Shown here: in pieces, positions 2,163 to 14,279 of the stretch | Numbering within the stretch: the stretch's first letter is position 1 | Layout: each line of letters begins with the position of its first letter | Assembly (NCBI GenBank): GCA_964473625.1 | Contig: CAYYPT010000044.1 | Coordinates: 1 to 15,592, forward strand | Direction of reading: 5' to 3' | Source of the DNA: an uncultured bacterium | GTDB lineage: Bacteria > Zhuqueibacterota > QNDG01 > DSAB01 | Length of the DNA stretch: 15,592 nt | Made by a program: the position numbers and the translations under genes | The notes under the pieces: model-generated | The model's database searches: none | Told to the model about the DNA's origin: nothing | The model's input: the letters and a program-made list of their open reading frames with translations, nothing else

Positions 2163-4584
<2,422 letters not shown>

Positions 4585-4613: not shown

Positions 4614-5462
4614 ATGCGTACAATTCACGTTGGTTCTGTTCCGATTGGGGAAAATTATCCGTTAGTTTTAATAGCAGGACCGTGTGTTATAGAATCTCTG
4701 GATCTAGTTTTGCAGGTAGCTGATACTGTGAGTAAAATTTGTGCAAAACTTAAAATTCCTTATATATTTAAGTCTTCATATCTGAAAGATAACAGGTCTT
4801 CATCCCTCAGTTTTCAGGGGCCGGGTTTGGAAGAAGGCCTTAAAATACTTGAGAAGGTAAAAAATGAGATAGGTGTTCCTGTTCTTTCTGATGTACACGA
4901 TCAACACAACATGAAAGCTGCGGCAGAAGTCTTAGACGTAATTCAAATCCCTGCTTATCTTTCCATGCAAACGAGCCTCACTCTGGCAGCGGCCAGAACA
5001 GGAAAAGTTATCAATGTAAAAAAAGGACAATTTCTCGATCCTCATGATGTAAAAAATATTGTAGGGAAGATCGAAGGGGAAGGGAATTATAATATCCTTT
5101 TAACAGAAAGAGGAAGCTGTTTTGGATATCACAACCTTGTAGTTGATATGCGCTCTTTTAAAATAATGCGTGAAATCGGATACCCAGTAGTTTTTGACGC
5201 AACGCATTCTATTAGAATATATGGGATTCCAAGTTCTGATCCCAGAGGGGGAGTTCCTCAATTTGTTCCAGCACTTTCTCGTGCAGCTGTAGCTGCTGGA
5301 ATAGATGCTATTTTCATTGAAACACATCCTCATTGTAGTGATGCACTTTGTGATGCAGCCAGCATGTGGCCTCTGGATCTTTTGGAACCTCTTCTTCTGC
5401 AACTAAAAGATATAGATGAGATGGTAAGATCCCAGAAAGAAATTGAACTGGAGGTGAAATGA
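4614..5462 (+). CDS. kdsA: 2-dehydro-3-deoxyphosphooctonate aldolase (Kdo-8-phosphate synthase)
   Basis: 282 aa: [12 protein letters not shown]...DVHD...VLQIPA...FDATHS. This is the KdsA/DAHP-synthase-fold signature. GGGAG SD upstream of ATG 4614. Confidence 0.9.
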
Positions 5463-6109
5463 AATTTTTTGTTGATACTGCAGATGTTGAAGAAATAAAA
5501 GCGGCAAAAGCTCTTGGCCTTGCCGATGGTGTTACAACAAATCCCACGCTTATCCAGAAGTCGGGGAGAGATTTTCGCGAAACAATTACAGAAATAGCAG
5601 AACTTGTTGAGGGCCCTGTTAATGCCGAAGTTGTCAGTACTGATCTTAAAGGGATTATCAAAGAGGGAAAAGAAATGGCAAGCTGGGCTCCTAATGTTGT
5701 TATAAAAATTCCAATTACAAGGGAAGGCCTTGAAGCTGTTAAAGTTCTTGAATCCGAAGGAATCCATACTACAGTCACCCTTATTTTTTCTCCCTCTCAG
5801 GCTCTTTTAGCAGCCAAAGCCGGTGCTTCTTACATTTGTCCTTTTGTTGGTCGGCTTGATGATATTTCTCTGAATGGAATGGCTGTTGTTGAAGAGATAG
5901 CAGAGATTTATTATAATTATCCTGACATTAAAACTGAAATTATTGTTGCAAGCATCCGTACGCCAAATCATGTTTTAGAATCAGCACTCATTGGTGTGGA
6001 CGGTGTCACTGTTCCTTTCAAGGTTATTGAAAAGTTAATACACCATCCGCTGACTGATATCGGAATCAAGCGGTTCTTGGATGATTGGGAGAAGGTATGG
6101 AAGAGATAA
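5459..6109 (+). CDS. tal: Short-type transaldolase / fructose-6-phosphate aldolase family protein
   Basis: 216 aa: [16 protein letters not shown]...GVTTNPTLI...KIPIT..G...[26 protein letters not shown]. Closely parallels B. subtilis Tal and E. coli FsaA/TalC. The ATGA overlaps the kdsA stop. Confidence 0.9.
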
Positions 6110-8403
6110 GTGTAAAAATAAGCCAAGATCAAGATAATAATGAGCTAGTCATACTAGATAAAAATCGTGTTAAATTACCTAAATTATCTGCGGCAGAGAT
6201 GATAACTAACTTTGGGATCAAAAGTGAACATTATAAATGGAGCCTTAATCAAATCCGTGAACTCTATCACAAATTAGAAAGCCATAGAGAATCGAGTTTA
6301 AATCATCTTTTTAAGGAGTGGGAATCTATATATTCCCGAATATATGAAAAGTCCCCTTCTTTAGAGATTTTCCTGAACCAAGTTTACTTAACTGTTATAG
6401 CTAAGGCAACTCTATTTTTGAAATTTTCTACGAAAGATGCAGTGGATATTATTAATTGGCCTTCTTTTGATAAAAATACCATAGACTTTACTGGATGGAT
6501 GACTGATGAGAAGATAGTTAATAATGCAATAGTTTTGTTTCAAAAAACGGCAAAGATACTGTCAAATTATGATTTAGCAATTATAGAAGAAGATGTCTTC
6601 AGAGCATTATATGAAGAAATAATTGAGGGAGCTCAGAGGCACAAACTTGGTGAATATTATACACCAAAGTGGCTTGTAGGACTTGTTTTAAAAGAAGCAC
6701 TATCGCTGTGGGATAGAAATTTTCCTCCGAAAATTTTTGATCCAGCTTGCGGTTCTGGTACATTTTTAGTTTATGCAGCTTTATACTTAAAAGAAAAATA
6801 TAAATTACCTGCCAACGCCCTTGTAGAATATATTGCTGGATTAGATATAAATCCTATTGCAGTTATAGTAGCAAAAACAAATCTTGCAGTAGTATTGGAT
6901 GATCCTAATCTTTCCCGATTTCAAATCTATAACCGAGATGCATTAAAGAACTATGATTTATTCGATTCCAATACAGATGTAAGTAGATATAACGTAATTG
7001 TAGGGAACCCTCCTTGGATTGTGTTAAGATCAATTAAAAATAAAAATTATCAAAATTTTGTTAAAAAGGAAATGATAAAGTATAAGTTGATAACAAATGG
7101 TGACGTGCATCTTTATACCCAATTGGACACATCGGCACTATTTTTCAATAAATGCACGGATAGATATCTAAATAAAAATGGTATTATCGCTTTCGTAATG
7201 CCCAGAAGTGTAATTGGAGGTACCCATCAACATAAAAATTTCAGAAAGTTTAAATATCCTTCAACAAGGCTAATAAAAGTTATTGATTTGGAAGAGGTTA
7301 ATCCGCTTTTTAATATGCCTTCCTGTGTATTAATAGGTCGCAAAGGTGATAGGAATGTCTATCCAGTTCCTTTGGATAAATATAGAGGGGAGTTACCCGA
7401 TAGAGATTTAGATTTCCAAAATGCAAAATCGATCTTATGTTTGCAGAGTGATAAATACATCCCGAAAATTAATGGAGAGAAAAAAAGTTATTACTATAAT
7501 AAATTCAAAGTCGGATTAAGTATTTTCCCCCGTTCCTTTTACTTCCTCGACTTGGAGCGGATTAATGACAAAATTGTCTCAGTTAAAACGTCTAAAGAAG
7601 TCCTTAGAATCGTAAAAGAACCTTGGAAACATGAATTAACCGGAGCTATCGAGAAGGATTTTATATTTTGTACTATTCTTCCCTGTAAAATGGTGCCATT
7701 TGGGTATATGGAAGTGCATCCAGTGGTTTTACCTATAAGGAGAAATGACAAATATGAGCTTCTTGACTTTAATGATATGAAACAAATGGGTTGCAATGGC
7801 TTGTATAAATGGTTTAAAAATGCCCAAAGAATATGGGATAATTATAAAACTGAGAAGGCTAAAGAGAGATTTCCACGATTATTAGATAGACTTAATTACA
7901 ATAATCTTATTGAGTTTCAGCACCCTGGCAATAAATACGTCGTTCTATACAATGCCACTGGCAAAAATATAACATCCTGTGTTATAGACAAAAGATATCT
8001 CCCCGAATTTATGGTAAATAGTAAAAATCTTCACCCAAAAGGATTCATAGCGGATGTTAAAACCTGGCTATTTGAAACAAATTCCGAAAATGAAGCATAT
8101 TACCTTGCTACAATTCTTAATTCTGCTCTTCTGAACATGCTAATTAAGCCTTTTCAACCTCGCGGTTTGTATGGTGCAAGAGCGATACATCGCAGACCGT
8201 TAGAATTTCCGATATCAAAATTTGATGATAAAAATGGAACACATGCTGAAGTCGCTTTGTTAGGGAAAAATCTTCATTCAAAAGTCCAAAATTTAATCCA
8301 GAAAAATATATCTAAGAGTCAGATAAGAAAATATATACAAAATGATCTCAGTAAAATAAATATGCTTATGAAGAATTTGTTTCGGATAGAGGAGGTAAGC
8401 TAA
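6097..8403 (+). CDS. Gamma-class N6-adenine-specific DNA methyltransferase, 769 aa from ATG 6097. It carries a ~180-aa N-terminal domain and a ~450-aa C-terminal putative target-recognition region. Probable R-M or defense-system component.
   Basis: Motif [11 protein letters not shown] (about 6649-6678). Motif [16 protein letters not shown] (about 6736-6780). Motif [12 protein letters not shown] (NPPW at 7006-7017). The order X-I-IV with a C-terminal TRD defines the gamma class. ATG 6097 follows GGGAG (6087-6091) at 5-nt spacing. The track's TTG 6085 is an alternative start. The region is very AT-rich relative to its flanks. Confidence 0.85.
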
Positions 8404-9152
8404 TGTCAGTTAATAAGCTAAGCTTAATCCAAACTCTTCGGAGGATAAAACAGGAGTATGAAGATGCGATAAGAAATGGAAATTATACTAATTTGATACG
8501 TTCAAAGAAATTAATAAATATACTTCATAAGTTCGTTATAAGTGAATTGCGTAATATGGTAAATGATGGTTGGATAATTACAGATAAAAAGGTGTATGGA
8601 TTCCCAAAGAAAAAAGAACAAGATATTCTAATTCAGCCCCCTCAAGATGGTACAAACATTACTGTGGGACCTATGCTTTCTATTAACGTGAGAAGCCAAT
8701 TGAGTTCTATCGAGAAAAATTATGATACTCTTTTTGAAAGGATTTTTGCCGAGGCACTGAATTTACACAATCGTTTTCCATACATGGTTTTAGGATATCT
8801 ATATTTGCTTCCATATATTGGGTATGATTCTGATGCTGCAAAGGAAAGAGAGGTAAGACTTAGAGAGCAGTATGATTTAGAAAAATATATTTTGAGTTTT
8901 CTTTCAGTTTCTGGTAGGCAAAATCCAAGTGACGTTCCTTGGAAATACGAAAGGATATGTTTGCTAATAGTAGATTTTGCAGAGGATCCTCCCAAGATAA
9001 TTGATGATATGAAGCTATTTGTTGAAAGAGATTTAGTATCTGAAAAATTTGCAAATATGTATAGTTTTAATAGTCTATCAATAGAGAATTTCTTCAATGA
9101 ACTTTATAAGTATATGATGGAAAGGCACTATCTTTTGATTAAGGGTGATTAA
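8403..9152 (+). CDS. Hypothetical 249-aa protein translationally coupled to the methyltransferase. Candidate cognate restriction endonuclease or other defense effector; unproven.
   Basis: ATG 8403-8405 overlaps the MTase TAA (8401-8403) as TAATG. Same AT-rich composition as the MTase. No recognisable family motif; a weak D...(E)QD stretch at ITDKKVYGFPKKKEQDILIQ is the only PD-(D/E)xK-like candidate. Confidence 0.6.
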   Translation: MSVNKLSLIQTLRRIKQEYEDAIRNGNYTNLIRSKKLINILHKFVISELRNMVNDGWIITDKKVYGFPKKKEQDILIQPPQDGTNITVGPMLSINVRSQLSSIEKNYDTLFERIFAEALNLHNRFPYMVLGYLYLLPYIGYDSDAAKEREVRLREQYDLEKYILSFLSVSGRQNPSDVPWKYERICLLIVDFAEDPPKIIDDMKLFVERDLVSEKFANMYSFNSLSIENFFNELYKYMMERHYLLIKGD

Positions 9153-9159
9153 AAATGGT

Positions 9160-9300
9160 TAAACGCAGCGACGGCGGGCACTCTTGCGGCCCTTCGAGTT
9201 GCTCGGGGTGATCACACTCTCACCTAACAGTGTGTGTATGGTTCGTTCTATTTACTCAAATGTTGCCTTAGGTGTTTTGCGAACTCGCCACTTCTTAGGT
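9160..9300. other. GC-rich structured non-coding segment. Possible small RNA, insertion scar or att remnant.
   Basis: Abrupt switch from about 25 percent GC in the island genes to a GC-rich run (gcagcgacggcgggcactcttgcggcccttcgagttgctcggggtg). Hairpins cgag-ttg-ctcg (9195-9205) and cacact-N10-agtgtg (9213-9234). No ORF of 60 aa or more on either strand. Confidence 0.35.
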
Positions 9301-9350
9301 AAAACATTTAAAAAGAATTGTATCTATAAATAGCTATTGGCATTACTGTT

Positions 9351-10310
9351 ATGAGCATTGAAAAAGGAAAAGAGGTCATCAGGATAGAAGCCGAAGCTGT
9401 CCAGGCTCTGATAGATCGGATTGATGAAAATTTTGAAAAAGCTGTAAATATGCTTTTGAACTGTAAGGGAAGAGTTATCGTAACTGGTATGGGAAAGTCC
9501 GGAATTATTGCCCAGAAGATTGCTTCCATGTTAACCAGTACAGGTACAGCAGCTTTTTTCCTTCATCCTGCTGAAGGCGTGCATGGTGATCTTGGAGCTG
9601 TTTTAAAAGAAGATGTTGTTATCTGTATTTCCAAAAGCGGTAACACTGAAGAGATTCTCCGATTGCTTCCCCTTTTCAGGCGCCAAGGGGTTCCTCTTAT
9701 AGCGCTGACAGGAAATTTGAATTCTGATCTTGCCAAGCGAAGTGATATTGTATTAGACGTAAGTGTAAAAGAAGAGGCCTGTCCTTACGACATCATTCCG
9801 AGTTCCAGTACTACTGCTGCCCTTGTTATGGGAGATGCTTTGGCACTGGCAGTTTTTCAGGAAAGAGGCTTGAGTGTTGAAGACTTTGCTCAGTTTCATC
9901 CCGGAGGCGACATTGGTAAACGTCTGCTTCTCAAAGTGGACGATGTAATGCGAACGGGAGAGGACATTGCCAGCGTAAATGTGGATACTCCTCTTCCCCA
10001 GACGATTCTGGAAATTACTTCCAAAAGGCTGGGAGCTACCTGCGTAATGAATGGTAATGGAAAGCTGGCAGGGATTATTACTGATGGCGATCTTCGCCGT
10101 CTCATGGAACAAAGACATAATGTATGGGATCTTAAAGCTAAAGATATTATGACGAAAGATCCTAAATGTGTTCCTTCTGGCGTATTAGCAGCAAAGGCAC
10201 TTCATGTTATGGAGGAATACAGTATTAACCAGTTGATAGTTGTGGATGAGAAGAATCAGGCAGTGGGTATGGTTCATGTTCATGACTTGTTAAAAGCAGG
10301 GCTTGCTTGA
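9351..10310 (+). CDS. kdsD: Arabinose-5-phosphate isomerase (KdsD/KpsF family; SIS domain plus tandem CBS domains)
   Basis: 319 aa. VIVTGMGKSGIIAQKIASMLTSTGT...FLHP.E..HGDLG is the SIS domain. The C-terminal CBS pair ends VVDE...VGMVHVHDLLKAGL. The alignment to E. coli KdsD holds over the whole length. No SD is visible before ATG 9351. Confidence 0.85.
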   Translation: MSIEKGKEVIRIEAEAVQALIDRIDENFEKAVNMLLNCKGRVIVTGMGKSGIIAQKIASMLTSTGTAAFFLHPAEGVHGDLGAVLKEDVVICISKSGNTEEILRLLPLFRRQGVPLIALTGNLNSDLAKRSDIVLDVSVKEEACPYDIIPSSSTTAALVMGDALALAVFQERGLSVEDFAQFHPGGDIGKRLLLKVDDVMRTGEDIASVNVDTPLPQTILEITSKRLGATCVMNGNGKLAGIITDGDLRRLMEQRHNVWDLKAKDIMTKDPKCVPSGVLAAKALHVMEEYSINQLIVVDEKNQAVGMVHVHDLLKAGLA

Positions 10311-10323
10311 AGGACAAAGCAGT

Positions 10324-10965
10324 ATGAAAAGAAATATTTTTTTATATTTGTTTTTCCTATTTTTTCTGTGGATATTTTTATCAGGATGTGCAAGGAAAAA
10401 GCATGAGAATGTTTTAATAACGGATCAACAAAATAAAGAATATCCCAGTCAAGAAGGATGGAATTCTGAAATAATTCTTTCGAGAGCAGGCCTTTGTCAG
10501 GCTGTAATTCATTATGCTCACATGGTGAAATATGATAAGAAAAAAGTGGTTTTTTTTGATGGGGGAGTTGAAGTGGATTTTTATGATAAGAATGGGAATC
10601 ATACTTCACATCTGACTTCTGAAAAAGGAGAATATCACGAAGCAACAGAAGATGTTGTTGGGTTAGGTAATGTAGTTGTGGTATCAGACAGTGGAGTTAC
10701 ACTCCGAACAGAAGTTTTAAGGTGGGATAACAGACGAGAAAAGATTTTTTCTGATACGACTGTAATGATAACTACTGAAAAACACGATACTCTTTACGGT
10801 GTTGGATTTGAATCCAATGCTGATTTGAGTCACAGGGTTATTTATAAACCGTGGGGGATAACTGATAAAAAAATAAATATCCAGGAACTTGAGACTTCGT
10901 TTTCTCGATCTTCTCGTAATGATACTTTGGCAAGAAAGGATTCTACTGTAATCAAAAAGAAATGA
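10324..10965 (+). CDS. lptC: LptC-like LPS export component, predicted lipoprotein
   Basis: Position between kdsD and lptA/lptB, as in the E. coli kdsD-(kdsC)-lptC-lptA-lptB-rpoN locus. Size is about 213 aa from ATG 10324. The N-terminus MKRNIFLYLFFLFFLWIFLSGC has a signal peptide and an L-S-G-C lipobox. The track start TTG 10303 is less likely. Assignment rests on synteny and size, not motif identity. Confidence 0.5.
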   Translation: MKRNIFLYLFFLFFLWIFLSGCARKKHENVLITDQQNKEYPSQEGWNSEIILSRAGLCQAVIHYAHMVKYDKKKVVFFDGGVEVDFYDKNGNHTSHLTSEKGEYHEATEDVVGLGNVVVVSDSGVTLRTEVLRWDNRREKIFSDTTVMITTEKHDTLYGVGFESNADLSHRVIYKPWGITDKKINIQELETSFSRSSRNDTLARKDSTVIKKK

Positions 10966-12086
10966 GGCTAATAACACAAATATTTATTTTTGTTCTTTTT
11001 TATCTTGTGGGAAGTAGAACAATTCTTTTTTCTGAACCTGTGAAGTCTTCACCTGTGGAACATCTAAAATTGGTTCATGCGGATAGTTTGGTAATTGTTT
11101 CGATCAAAGGTAGAGATGTTCACGAACTGTGGGGTAATGTGCAGCTTGTTCAGGGAGAAGCATTCTTATCCTGTGAAATGGCGAAGTGGTGGCAGGGTGA
11201 AGACAGATTGCTTCTTCTTGGCATGGTTACAATTTACGATGGGAAACGTACTCTAAAAGCAGATCGAATATACTACGACGGTAAAACAAGGGTAGAAAAA
11301 GCTTTCGGACATGTTCTTCTCGAAAGTAAAAAAAGAAAATTAAAAGCCCGGTCTCTTATATATTTTCAAAAAAAGGAAAAGGCGTTTGCTTCTGGAGATG
11401 TAGTGATATCGGATCTTATTGAGAAGGTTAAATTGTTAGGGGAAAAAGCTCTGTACGATCGCTCTATGGACTACGGTGTAATAGAAGGTTGTCCCAGGTT
11501 AGTTAAGATCGATACTACTTCAGGCAAAATGATGATAGTAAGAGGGCTAAAAATAGAGGCATGGGGGAAAGAGCAAAGAGCTGTTGTCTCTGATAGTGTT
11601 CAGATAACAAAAGGTGATATGAAAGCTTTCTGTCAGAAAGCGGAGTATAGGTCTGAGAAAGATTTGCTTATTTTAAAAATAGAACCTATAGTCTGGCAGC
11701 AACAACGAGAAATGCGGGCTGATAATATTAATATTCAACTGGAAGGGTTGAAGTTTTCCAGGGCTTTTCTTACGGGAAAAGCAGAGATTATTTCAAAAGA
11801 GGATAGTGTTAAAAATGTACTGAATGGAGAAAAAATTACAGTAACTGCCAGTGACGATACTGTTCGCAGGGTGGTAGTAGAAGGGCAGGCAAGCAGTATG
11901 TACCATATTTTTGATGAAGTCAGACATGAACAGGGAACTAATTCTGTCACAGGAGACATTATTGTTCTTACTTTTGATGAGAATCGTTTAAAAGAGGTTA
12001 AAGTGAAAAGCAGCCCTGGCCAGTGTACAGGTGTTTACACACCAATAGAAGTAAGTACGGGAATGGTGAAAGGAAAGAGTCTGTGA
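10962..12086 (+). CDS. lptA: LptA/OstA-family periplasmic protein. Long 374-aa form, probably tandem OstA-like beta-jellyroll repeats.
   Basis: N-terminal signal-like [18 protein letters not shown]. The internal [21 protein letters not shown] resembles the LptA/OstA_N core. Sits immediately upstream of lptB. The ATGA overlaps the lptC stop. Confidence 0.55.
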
Positions 12087-12875: not shown

Positions 12876-14279
12876 ATGGTTCAAATTGGTCAAAGGCTAT
12901 TATTACAACAGAAACAGAGCCCACAACAGGTACTTTTGTCTACTCTTCTTCAGCTTCCTGTACTGCGTCTTGAACAACGCATTAAGCAGGAACTTGAGTT
13001 GAATCCTTTGCTTGAACTCGATACGGAGGAGGAAGAAGAGTTAGAGTTAAAAGAGGAAATAGAAGAAAAAGATGATGATGAGGAAGAGAAAGAAGTTGGA
13101 GAAGAGAACGAAGTTGATTGGGAGACTATCCTTAATGATGAGGATGAATATGAAGTGAAGGCTCCACGGGAACATCATGAAGAGGAATTGGAACATACTG
13201 AGCCAGCTCCCGTAACATTGATGGACCATCTTTTTGAACAGCTCAGGCTTTCTCCACTGTCGGACAAAGAGATGGAAATTGGCGAATACATTCTTTGGTG
13301 CATTGATGATGATGGCTATCTTGCATGTGATGTAGATTCTATTGCAGAGAATTTTAATACCACGGAAGAAAAAGTAGAAAAAGTCTTATCAGTGATCCAG
13401 CGATTTGATCCTGTGGGAATTGGAGCAAGGAATCTCCAGGAATGTCTTCTCATTCAACTTTATGAAAAAGAACCGAGAGATGAACTGGCTATCCGAATGC
13501 TTCAGGAATGCTTTGATGATTTTACAAACAAACGTTTTGAAAAAATTGCCAAAAAACTTAACATCTCTCTTGCTGAAGTAAAAAGAATTATAGGGCTCGT
13601 TTCTCGTTTGAACCCCAAACCGGGTGAAAGATACGTTTCAGAAGCAGAAAATTATATTGTACCTGATGTAATAGTAGAAAGAGTGGAAGGTGATTTTGTT
13701 ATTACTTTAAACGATTGGAATATCCCGCGGCTTCGTATTAATGAATCGTATAAGCAACTTCTTAAAGAAAAAGACAAAGTTAGCAAAGAGACTCGCGACT
13801 ACATCCGACAGCGATTGGAATCGGCTCGGTGGCTAATTAATTCCATTTATCAGAGGAGATCTACCATACTAAGGGTAATGGAATCTATTTTGAAACACCA
13901 GCGAGAATTTTTTGAAAAAGGAAAGAAATATCTTAAGCCTATGATCTTGAAAGACGTGGCAGATGATGTGGACCTGGATATTTCTACTGTCAGTAGGGTT
14001 ACTAATGGAAAATATGTTCAAACAGATTTTGGCGTGTTTGAATTAAAGTATTTTTTCAGCGAACGACTTGAGACCGCCAGTGGAGAAGAAGTTTCAAATA
14101 AATTAATTAAAGCGAAGATCAAAGAGATCATTGAAAAAGAAGATCCACGAAAACCGTTCAATGACTTGACTATATCTAATTTGTTAAAAAAAGAAGGTTT
14201 TATTGTAGCCAGAAGAACTGTTGCAAAATATCGTGAGCAGATGATGATTCCTGTCGCGCGACTTAGAAGAAAGATTTAA
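12876..14279 (+). CDS. rpoN: RNA polymerase sigma-54 factor
   Basis: Gln/Leu-rich region I (LLLQQKQSPQQVLLSTLLQLPVLRLEQRIKQELELNPLLE), acidic region II, the C-terminal HTH and the RpoN box ARRTVAKYREQMMIPVARLRRK. AGAGGAG SD upstream of ATG 12876. Confidence 0.95.
   Translation: MVQIGQRLLLQQKQSPQQVLLSTLLQLPVLRLEQRIKQELELNPLLELDTEEEEELELKEEIEEKDDDEEEKEVGEENEVDWETILNDEDEYEVKAPREHHEEELEHTEPAPVTLMDHLFEQLRLSPLSDKEMEIGEYILWCIDDDGYLACDVDSIAENFNTTEEKVEKVLSVIQRFDPVGIGARNLQECLLIQLYEKEPRDELAIRMLQECFDDFTNKRFEKIAKKLNISLAEVKRIIGLVSRLNPKPGERYVSEAENYIVPDVIVERVEGDFVITLNDWNIPRLRINESYKQLLKEKDKVSKETRDYIRQRLESARWLINSIYQRRSTILRVMESILKHQREFFEKGKKYLKPMILKDVADDVDLDISTVSRVTNGKYVQTDFGVFELKYFFSERLETASGEEVSNKLIKAKIKEIIEKEDPRKPFNDLTISNLLKKEGFIVARRTVAKYREQMMIPVARLRRKI

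Follow-up and report, generated by a model that had tools for sequence, protein, structure and literature searches.

A probable Type II restriction-modification cassette between tal and kdsD in an uncultured bacterium of the Zhuqueibacterota

SfcI (PMC5567051) and HpyF2I (PMC4041143) both recognize the sequence CTRYAG, and in H. pylori F57 methylation of CTRYAG has been assigned to the gene HPF57_1130 (PMC3983042). Systems of the SfcI/HpyF2I type are two-gene Type II restriction-modification (R-M) systems, and a likewise two-gene locus is described here from a 15,592-nt stretch of DNA (the window; contig CAYYPT010000044.1 of assembly GCA_964473625.1) of an uncultured bacterium of the Zhuqueibacterota. 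The window carries an insert of ∼3.1 kb (6097 to about 9185–9230) between the housekeeping genes tal and kdsD, with two genes, hereafter M and R. We are fairly confident that this insert is a self-contained, horizontally acquired Type II R-M cassette that was inserted where tal ends, ahead of kdsD. Its link to SfcI and HpyF2I is by predicted specificity only.

Architecture of M and R compared with described systems

The pair shows the hallmarks of a Type II system, namely separate and adjacent M and R genes on the same strand with an overlap of 1 nt, a methyltransferase (MTase) with motif I and a (D/N)PP(Y/F/W) motif IV, and an endonuclease of a recognized restriction-nuclease family and fold. 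A controller (C) protein gene is not present. The pair is a classical Type II R-M cassette and not a new kind of defense system. The original prediction, made from the letters of the sequence, had considered an undescribed R-M variant or another MTase-coupled defense pair; the R-M pair was borne out, whereas its novelty was not, since R matches a catalogued endonuclease model and has a PD-(D/E)XK fold.

The 249-aa R protein had been described as a partner without a recognizable family. It matches the Type II restriction endonuclease model PADLOC PDLC03558 with an E-value of 1.6e-41 (profile positions 43–280 of 293), and its nuclease family is therefore already known from this model, though it has no Pfam or NCBIfam model. 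The predicted structure of R is that of a PD-(D/E)XK restriction nuclease, with PspGI, NgoMIV, BbvCI, Kpn2I, PfoI, and BstEII as structural neighbors (a CCGG-family-like fold). While the fold is alike, the sequence identity to these enzymes is only 8–15%, and their recognition sequences differ from the site predicted for R. Searches of R against Pfam, NCBIfam, and PDB sequences, both with the single sequence and with a profile, gave nothing meaningful, and a match to a retinol dehydratase (E = 0.046) was rejected as noise. Likewise, tblastn of R against annotated plasmids returned three distant matches, all hypothetical, and against phages none, with no named enzyme among the results. A profile search with the distant R homologues, in which the names of hosts of CTRYAG systems (Enterococcus, Helicobacter, Staphylococcus pseudintermedius) were sought, returned 2037 proteins, the sole informative source name being “restriction endonuclease [Bacteroidales].”

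In the R family, D74 and E112 are invariant, and the motif on the third strand reads N95-V-R97 instead of (D/E)xK, with an invariant K105 nearby. PspGI, NgoMIV, BbvCI, Kpn2I, PfoI, and BstEII have (S/E)-x-K where the R family has the invariant N95-x-R97. Owing to this motif, catalysis is not directly readable from the sequence; E48, D74, N95/R97 (or K105), and E112 are proposed as candidate catalytic residues. The invariant core of the family reads NVRSQLSS...KN(Y/F)DTL(F/Y)ER, and R of the window has all 73 of the 73 residues that are invariant in the family alignment.

M consists of a helical N-terminal region (residues 1–165), a catalytic domain (166–420), and a C-terminal target-recognition domain (TRD; 421–700). 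Residues 169–420 match Pfam N6_Mtase (E = 2.6e-19; 70 bits against a cut-off of 20.4) and Eco57I (E = 4.3e-14). Motif X, motif I, and motif IV precede the C-terminal TRD in the order of the gamma class; across 35 homologues, motifs I and IV do not vary. The earlier assignment of the protein as a gamma-class N6-adenine MTase was thus confirmed by both Pfam models and by the motif order. A profile search of the PDB with M retrieved CamA (E about 9e-18), M.BseCI (E = 3.7e-11), BsaXI, DrdV, and MmeI. When the AlphaFold model of M (pLDDT 85) was searched with Foldseek, CamA and M.BseCI aligned over ∼640 alignment columns (E from 1e-20 to 5e-19), and MmeI, BpuSI, PglX, and DrdV over 800 or more columns. 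Since the structural model matches CamA, M.BseCI, MmeI, BpuSI, and DrdV, M is predicted to be a monomeric gamma-class N6-adenine DNA methyltransferase that carries a recognition domain of its own at the C-terminus.

M.BseCI and CamA are the best matches of M in the profile and Foldseek searches and are alike in motif order, yet the identity is 14–17%, and both lack a counterpart of the extra, ∼165-aa helical N-terminal region of M. CamA is moreover an orphan enzyme, unlike M of the window. A helical region like that of M is found in Type IIG enzymes, where it lies between nuclease and MTase. With the MADS and BREX systems M has the gamma-class MTase domain in common (PADLOC mad2, 4.6e-27; PglX, 2.6e-9), but it scores far below the NCBIfam cut-offs for MADS MAD2 (47 against 720 bits) and BREX-2 PglX (31 against 400 bits), none of the partner genes of these systems is present, and the neighbors are tal and kdsD.

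The best PADLOC model for M is REase_MTase_IIG PDLC03630 (E = 2.4e-49). This match is explained by single-chain relatives that share the modules of M: its helical, MTase, and TRD modules have homologues in the single-chain Type IIG/IIL enzymes MmeI, BpuSI, and DrdV and in the metagenomic proteins P0226 and P0235. The single-chain relatives P0226–P0240 (1005–1045 aa) align with nearly the whole of M including the TRD, at 43–46% identity in the best local alignments (61–67% of the query), and P0226 is 36% identical end to end. They carry in addition an N-terminal D...ExK nuclease module and an insertion of ∼140 aa, and one of them is encoded singly amid housekeeping genes, in the manner of single-chain enzymes. 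M of the window has no fused nuclease: it aligns from residue 137 of P0226 onward and lacks the D...ExK module (GSADLIFSNVVFEIK in P0226) that is present in P0226 and P0235 (∼1000–1040 aa) as well as the ∼140-aa insertion of the single-chain relatives between motifs I and IV. Its nuclease is a separate protein, unlike the fused module of Type IIG enzymes. Judged from these alignments, M is a nuclease-less sibling of the Type IIG enzymes. In P0226 (L171:527–3640; L numbers denote the individual loci of the comparison) and P0235 (L170:6001–9018), the ∼140-aa insertion, which is absent in the two-gene form, lies between motifs I and IV; a 581-aa protein without a Pfam match comes after P0226.

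The insert between tal and kdsD

To place the pair in its genomic context, relative loci were collected with KdsD as the query, taking one genome per species, and all window proteins were then mapped onto them. The nearest relative, L008 (CAZPNF010000156), has 91–95% protein and 86–88% DNA identity, and its gene order is pyrG-kdsA-tal-kdsD-lptC-lptA with neither an M nor an R gene. The same holds for seven further relatives (L009, L010, and L014–L018; 67–79% protein identity), in which tal and kdsD are 34–230 nt apart, so that tal and kdsD stand without M or R in a total of eight relatives. In two more distant genomes, L047 and L076, tal likewise adjoins kdsD. The proposal that the segment interrupts the Kdo/Lpt/rpoN cluster was therefore upheld by synteny, and relatives with the same two genes at the same place, which would have spoken against a recent acquisition, were not found.

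On the left side, the window and L008 are homologous in DNA up to 6096, the base that precedes the start codon of M. The homology returns weakly from ∼9230 and clearly, as seen by blastn, from 9302, and we place the right junction within about 9185–9230. Tal ends in DDWEKVWKR in the window and in DDWKKVNI in L008, its last residues being changed because the insertion rewrote the end of tal. A subset of the open reading frames (ORFs) of the window was checked against the family library or the relatives. No integrase or transposase was found among the genes scanned or matched in this way, in agreement with the original prediction, and all other window genes checked have housekeeping orthologues in the relatives. 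The tRNA scan and the Rfam scan of the window were both empty, and the repeat scan of the junctions revealed no repeats flanking the insert. Within these scans, none of the marks of an integrase-mediated genomic island (integrase/transposase, tRNA/att, direct repeats) was seen. Taken together, the absence of the genes at this site in relatives and the breaks of homology at 6096 and ∼9230–9302 support the view, already proposed from the sequence, of a small, horizontally acquired, integrase-less islet in the kdsA-tal/kdsD-lptCAB-rpoN cluster. With no more than about 74% DNA identity between the insert and its nearest relatives, no donor can be named.

The GC content is lower in the insert (32.5%) than in the flanking genes (39.0%), and the lowest-GC 3,056-nt window of the whole stretch starts at 6101. 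The insert is therefore AT-rich as predicted, with a contrast that is much smaller than the one obtained from hand-counted lines. GC3 does not differ (27% in the insert, 24–35% in host genes); the gap sits in codon positions 1 and 2, i.e., in the amino-acid composition of K/N/I/Y-rich proteins. A few synonymous codons are shifted (ATA 0.50 against 0.22, CAA 0.71 against 0.44, and also AGA and CTA). Composition alone is thus weak evidence of insertion, and the comparison with relatives carries the case. The GC-rich non-coding end of the insert that had been noted earlier was confirmed (Table 1). Folding of the tail region (9150–9300) was no better than that of shuffled sequence (z = −0.87), and Rfam gave no match there. 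A stretch of about 15 nt in the tail (GCGACGGCGGGCACT) is similar to DNA that follows R in L089, an unrelated locus.

The host-like GC3 and the lack of an identified donor, with the closest sampled homologues at only about 74% DNA identity, would also fit a history in which the pair was ancestral at the tal-kdsD site in the clade and was repeatedly lost in the relatives, as would the filler that the L008 locus has at the same site. We regard this history as very improbable. The pair is absent in all eight relatives including the sister at 86–88% nucleotide identity, the breaks of homology are sharp, and alignment of the L008 filler with the insert showed no similarity. Furthermore, R homologues of 60–78% identity come, by source name, from both bacteria and archaea, a spread not explicable by vertical descent. 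We therefore retain horizontal acquisition of the cassette.

The filler in L008 (L008:3108–3765) is a different, 667-nt segment at exactly the same tal-kdsD site, where the other relatives have 34–230 nt. Its ORFs are small; one measures 58 aa, and another is a C-terminal DUF433 remnant with a weak match that stays below the threshold (E = 0.01). Small elements may have landed repeatedly in the tal-kdsD spacer.

The cluster genes kdsB, pyrG, kdsA, tal, M, R, kdsD, lptC, lptA, lptB, rpoN, and an hflK-like gene all lie on the plus strand (Table 1), and the R-kdsD spacer measures 198 nt. The M ORF runs from the first TTG at 6085 (772 aa) or from the ATG at 6097 (768 aa) to 8403. The ATG is most likely the start, and it is also where the gene is called to begin in the identical contig L002. 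The anatomy given in the original prediction, a large MTase ORF overlapping a 249-aa ORF by 1 nt, proved correct except for the length of 769 aa for the MTase. The ATG of M lies 13 nt inside tal, whose stop codon is at 6107–6109, and the preceding GGGAGAAGG is within tal coding sequence common to the window and its relatives. At the M/R junction, the TAATG has one base in common to the stop codon TAA of M (8401–8403) and the ATG of R (8403–8405), and the AGGAGG is located 7 nt upstream of the R start. This arrangement suggests translational coupling.

Table 1. Coordinates of genes, motifs, and junctions in the window
Feature	Position (nt)	Strand	Remarks
kdsB	2163–2933	+	
pyrG	2941–4584	+	
kdsA	4614–5462	+	
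tal (transaldolase/FSA family)	5459–6109	+	left-edge host gene; Pfam TAL_FSA E = 6.7e-61
Left junction	6087–6099	+	Shine-Dalgarno-like GGGAGAAGG (6087–6095), then M ATG (6097–6099)
M gene (METHYLTRANSFERASE)	6097–8403	+	768 aa from ATG
GEYYTP, motif X-like, upstream of motif I	6649–6666	+	aa 185–190; invariant in 35 homologues
Motif I, SAM-binding loop	6736–6768	+	aa 214–224; invariant D215, P216, C218, G219, G221, F223
Motif IV GNPPW, catalytic motif	7003–7017	+	aa 303–307; invariant G303, N304, P305, P306, W307
M/R junction	8390–8405	+	AGGAGG (8390–8395), then TAATG
R gene, predicted Type II restriction endonuclease	8403–9152	+	249 aa
GC-rich non-coding tail, right end of insert	9153–9230	+	57.7% GC; surroundings 32–39%
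Native kdsD-upstream region	9231–9350	+	∼120 nt of ancestral tal-kdsD spacer retained; L008 alignment
kdsD (SIS + CBS arabinose-5-phosphate isomerase)	9351–10310	+	right-edge host gene; Pfam SIS, CBS; 91% identical to L008
rpoN	12876–14279	+	

Farther from the insert, an ORF of at least 569 aa without a significant Pfam match runs off the left end of the window on the minus strand (2–1708), followed by gatC on the plus strand (1864–2154), which was recognized by eye from the sequence. In L002, which represents an identical strain, the region downstream of the hflK-like gene (9573–11313), starting just past the right end of the window, contains an ORF of 123 aa and also encodes a reverse transcriptase of 458 aa (Pfam RVT_1, E = 4e-38). 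The latter could be a group II intron or a retron-type element, and thus a second mobile or defense-like element near the locus.

Occurrence of the pair and predicted recognition site

A large protein database contains 736 homologues of R, the top 120 of which are 58–100% identical. Their source names include Spirochaetes, KSB1, Thermoplasmata, Thermoprotei, and Methanofastidiosia, and those of the M homologues include Promethearchaeota, Atribacteria, Dehalococcoidia, Methanophagales, Halobacteriota, and Bathyarchaeia. In every metagenome contig of the close family with enough upstream DNA, a full-length M (41–70% identity) directly precedes R (58–78%). The flanking genes vary between these loci, some of which lie near tyrosine integrases, an IS110 transposase, or another DNA methylase. 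The pair of the window itself is found in several independent metagenome contigs, identical or at 99% identity. Distant R homologues (33–45% identity) share the core motif and adjoin unrelated, convergent gamma MTases, which are only 20–28% identical to M within the catalytic domain.

In several of the distant loci (L147:5133–6861, L150:2792–4516, L164:698–2422, L144, and L146), two tandem paralogues of the distant R are followed by the convergent gamma MTase. These paralogues recall heterodimeric enzymes such as BbvCI, itself a top structural match of R. Within the loci L088–L134, R is more conserved (58–78%) than M (41–70%). This is the reverse of the usual Type II pattern. It is partly explained by the variable N- and C-terminal regions of M, as conservation is 55% in the TRD and 55% in the catalytic core, against 26% in the N-terminal 165 aa and 35% in the C-terminal tail; swapping of the TRD as the cause of the lower conservation was accordingly rejected. 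In L094, the M-R pair is bracketed by two paralogous genes for a 175-aa SAM methyltransferase of the small-molecule type (2920–3447 and 6747–7274; Methyltransf_31/11), an arrangement which suggests that a tandem gene pair received an insertion or was duplicated.

In the 5.2-Mb genome CP070762, the seeming absence of M next to R turned out to be an assembly gap, with the C-terminus of M right after it: ∼100 Ns (L005:7754–7855, CP070762.1) in a genome labelled complete replace most of the M gene. Because of the gap, R, which adjoins a truncated AOR gene, could be mistaken for an orphan, and counts of orphan restriction endonucleases call for caution. A conserved third gene (Pyr_redox/Fer4), found downstream of R in L005, L006, and L007, was dismissed as a component of the system, being a host neighbor within one lineage (83% identical).

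To predict the recognition site, observed hexamer counts were compared with the expectation of an order-4 Markov model for ∼1000 palindromic patterns including degenerate ones. CTACAG, CTATAG, and CTGCAG, which together make up CTRYAG, were among the most depleted words in pair-carrying DNA. CTRYAG ranked first in the host flanks (157 kb; 74 observed and 131 expected, O/E 0.56, z = −5.0) as well as in the M-R genes (124 kb; 11 observed and 66.9 expected, O/E 0.16, z = −6.8), and third in the distant-R loci (77 observed and 161 expected). In a control of 1.08 Mb of kdsD loci without the system, CTRYAG ranked only 125th (O/E 0.87). The window has six CTRYAG sites where 13.2 are expected, and the insert has none. 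We consider it rather probable, on the statistical ground of this word avoidance, that the pair recognizes CTRYAG, the specificity of SfcI and HpyF2I. The equal conservation of TRD and catalytic core suggests that the members of the close family have one specificity in common.

The similarity of M to single-chain enzymes allows a different reading, in which the pair is a split system akin to Type IIG/IIL. R would then have no useful DNA specificity and would cut only when docked on M, whose TRD would select the site. The nearly full-length alignment of M with 1005–1045-aa enzymes that carry a D...ExK module, its best PADLOC match to a Type IIG model, and the strict adjacency and translational coupling of M and R are in line with this, and recruitment or licensing by M could also account for the consistently higher conservation of R. 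We nevertheless hold this reading to be unlikely. The structural neighbors of R match it in size and act as autonomous Type II enzymes with sequence specificity, and no similarity was detected between R and the nuclease module that the single-chain relatives of M carry. Moreover, the distant R homologues pair with unrelated MTases, which implies that R does not need this M, and their loci show the same depletion of CTRYAG, as expected if R itself reads the site. These observations favor R as an endonuclease with a specificity of its own, in a conventional two-gene Type II system.

The six CTRYAG sites retained in the host window, together with the position of the pair inside a housekeeping operon and the Arg at position 97 of R in place of the canonical Lys, could also point to a decayed or domesticated remnant, i.e., an inactive nuclease next to an M that persists without a partner, has an epigenetic or regulatory role, and is expressed together with the envelope operon. 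This appears quite unlikely. Both ORFs are of full length, and R holds every residue that is invariant in its family; R97 is itself invariant across the whole family and therefore a family trait rather than a sign of decay. The identical or 99% identical copies in independent metagenome contigs and the strong purifying selection on R in the family (58–78% identity) likewise speak against a remnant and for an intact Type II cassette.

Proposed mode of action and significance

In the mechanism we propose, M would methylate the A of CTRYAG in host DNA and thereby protect the host. R would be translated after M through the TAATG coupling, so that the methyltransferase would be made first. As a small PD-(D/E)XK nuclease of the PspGI/NgoMIV/BbvCI group, R would cut unmethylated incoming DNA at the same site, probably leaving a 4-nt 5′ overhang by analogy with SfcI and the structural neighbors. 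The cassette is probably transcribed from the kdsA-tal transcript and would use the ribosome-binding site in the tal coding sequence. Terminator-like sites were found neither between tal and M nor between R and kdsD, and read-through from tal into M, possibly onward into kdsD-lpt-rpoN, is plausible.

Several points weigh against this interpretation. The active site of R is non-canonical, with the invariant N95-V-R97 in place of (D/E)xK. With respect to the word avoidance, the control consists of Ignavibacteria-like loci and is not matched in taxonomy, the copies of M and R that enter the counts are phylogenetically non-independent, and CTRYAG first stood out, post hoc, in the pooled counts, so that only the distant homologues provide an independent set. 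Furthermore, the window keeps its six CTRYAG sites and the kdsA-tal region has more of them than L008, so that there is no sign of long-term purging in the host. Finally, the scan for sigma-70 promoters gave no more sites than shuffled sequences, although the consensus may not apply to this lineage.

As a classical Type II R-M cassette, the pair has little significance for the discovery of defense systems. The predicted SfcI-like specificity and the TRD in common with single-chain Type IIG enzymes are modest additions. If the specificity were confirmed, R would be an SfcI isoschizomer from an uncultured lineage, whose nearest named KdsD relatives are Kryptonia and Ignavibacteria (∼60% identity), and the specificity prediction obtained from word avoidance could supply thermostable or archaeal SfcI isoschizomers. 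The R family is large, with 736 close and more than 2000 broader homologues, and has no Pfam or NCBIfam model, for which the invariant core could serve as a definition. Its members are nearly always annotated as hypothetical, and annotation pipelines therefore miss the family.

The locus provides an example of a minimal cassette that integrates without a mobility gene, here into an essential envelope/rpoN cluster, with a borrowed ribosome-binding site in tal and a rewritten tal stop. Through the shared recognition domain, M connects the two-gene form of Type II systems with the single-chain enzymes of Type IIG, and the alignments suggest that the same helical-MTase-TRD module serves two unrelated nucleases, either a fused D...ExK module or a separate PspGI/NgoMIV-like protein.

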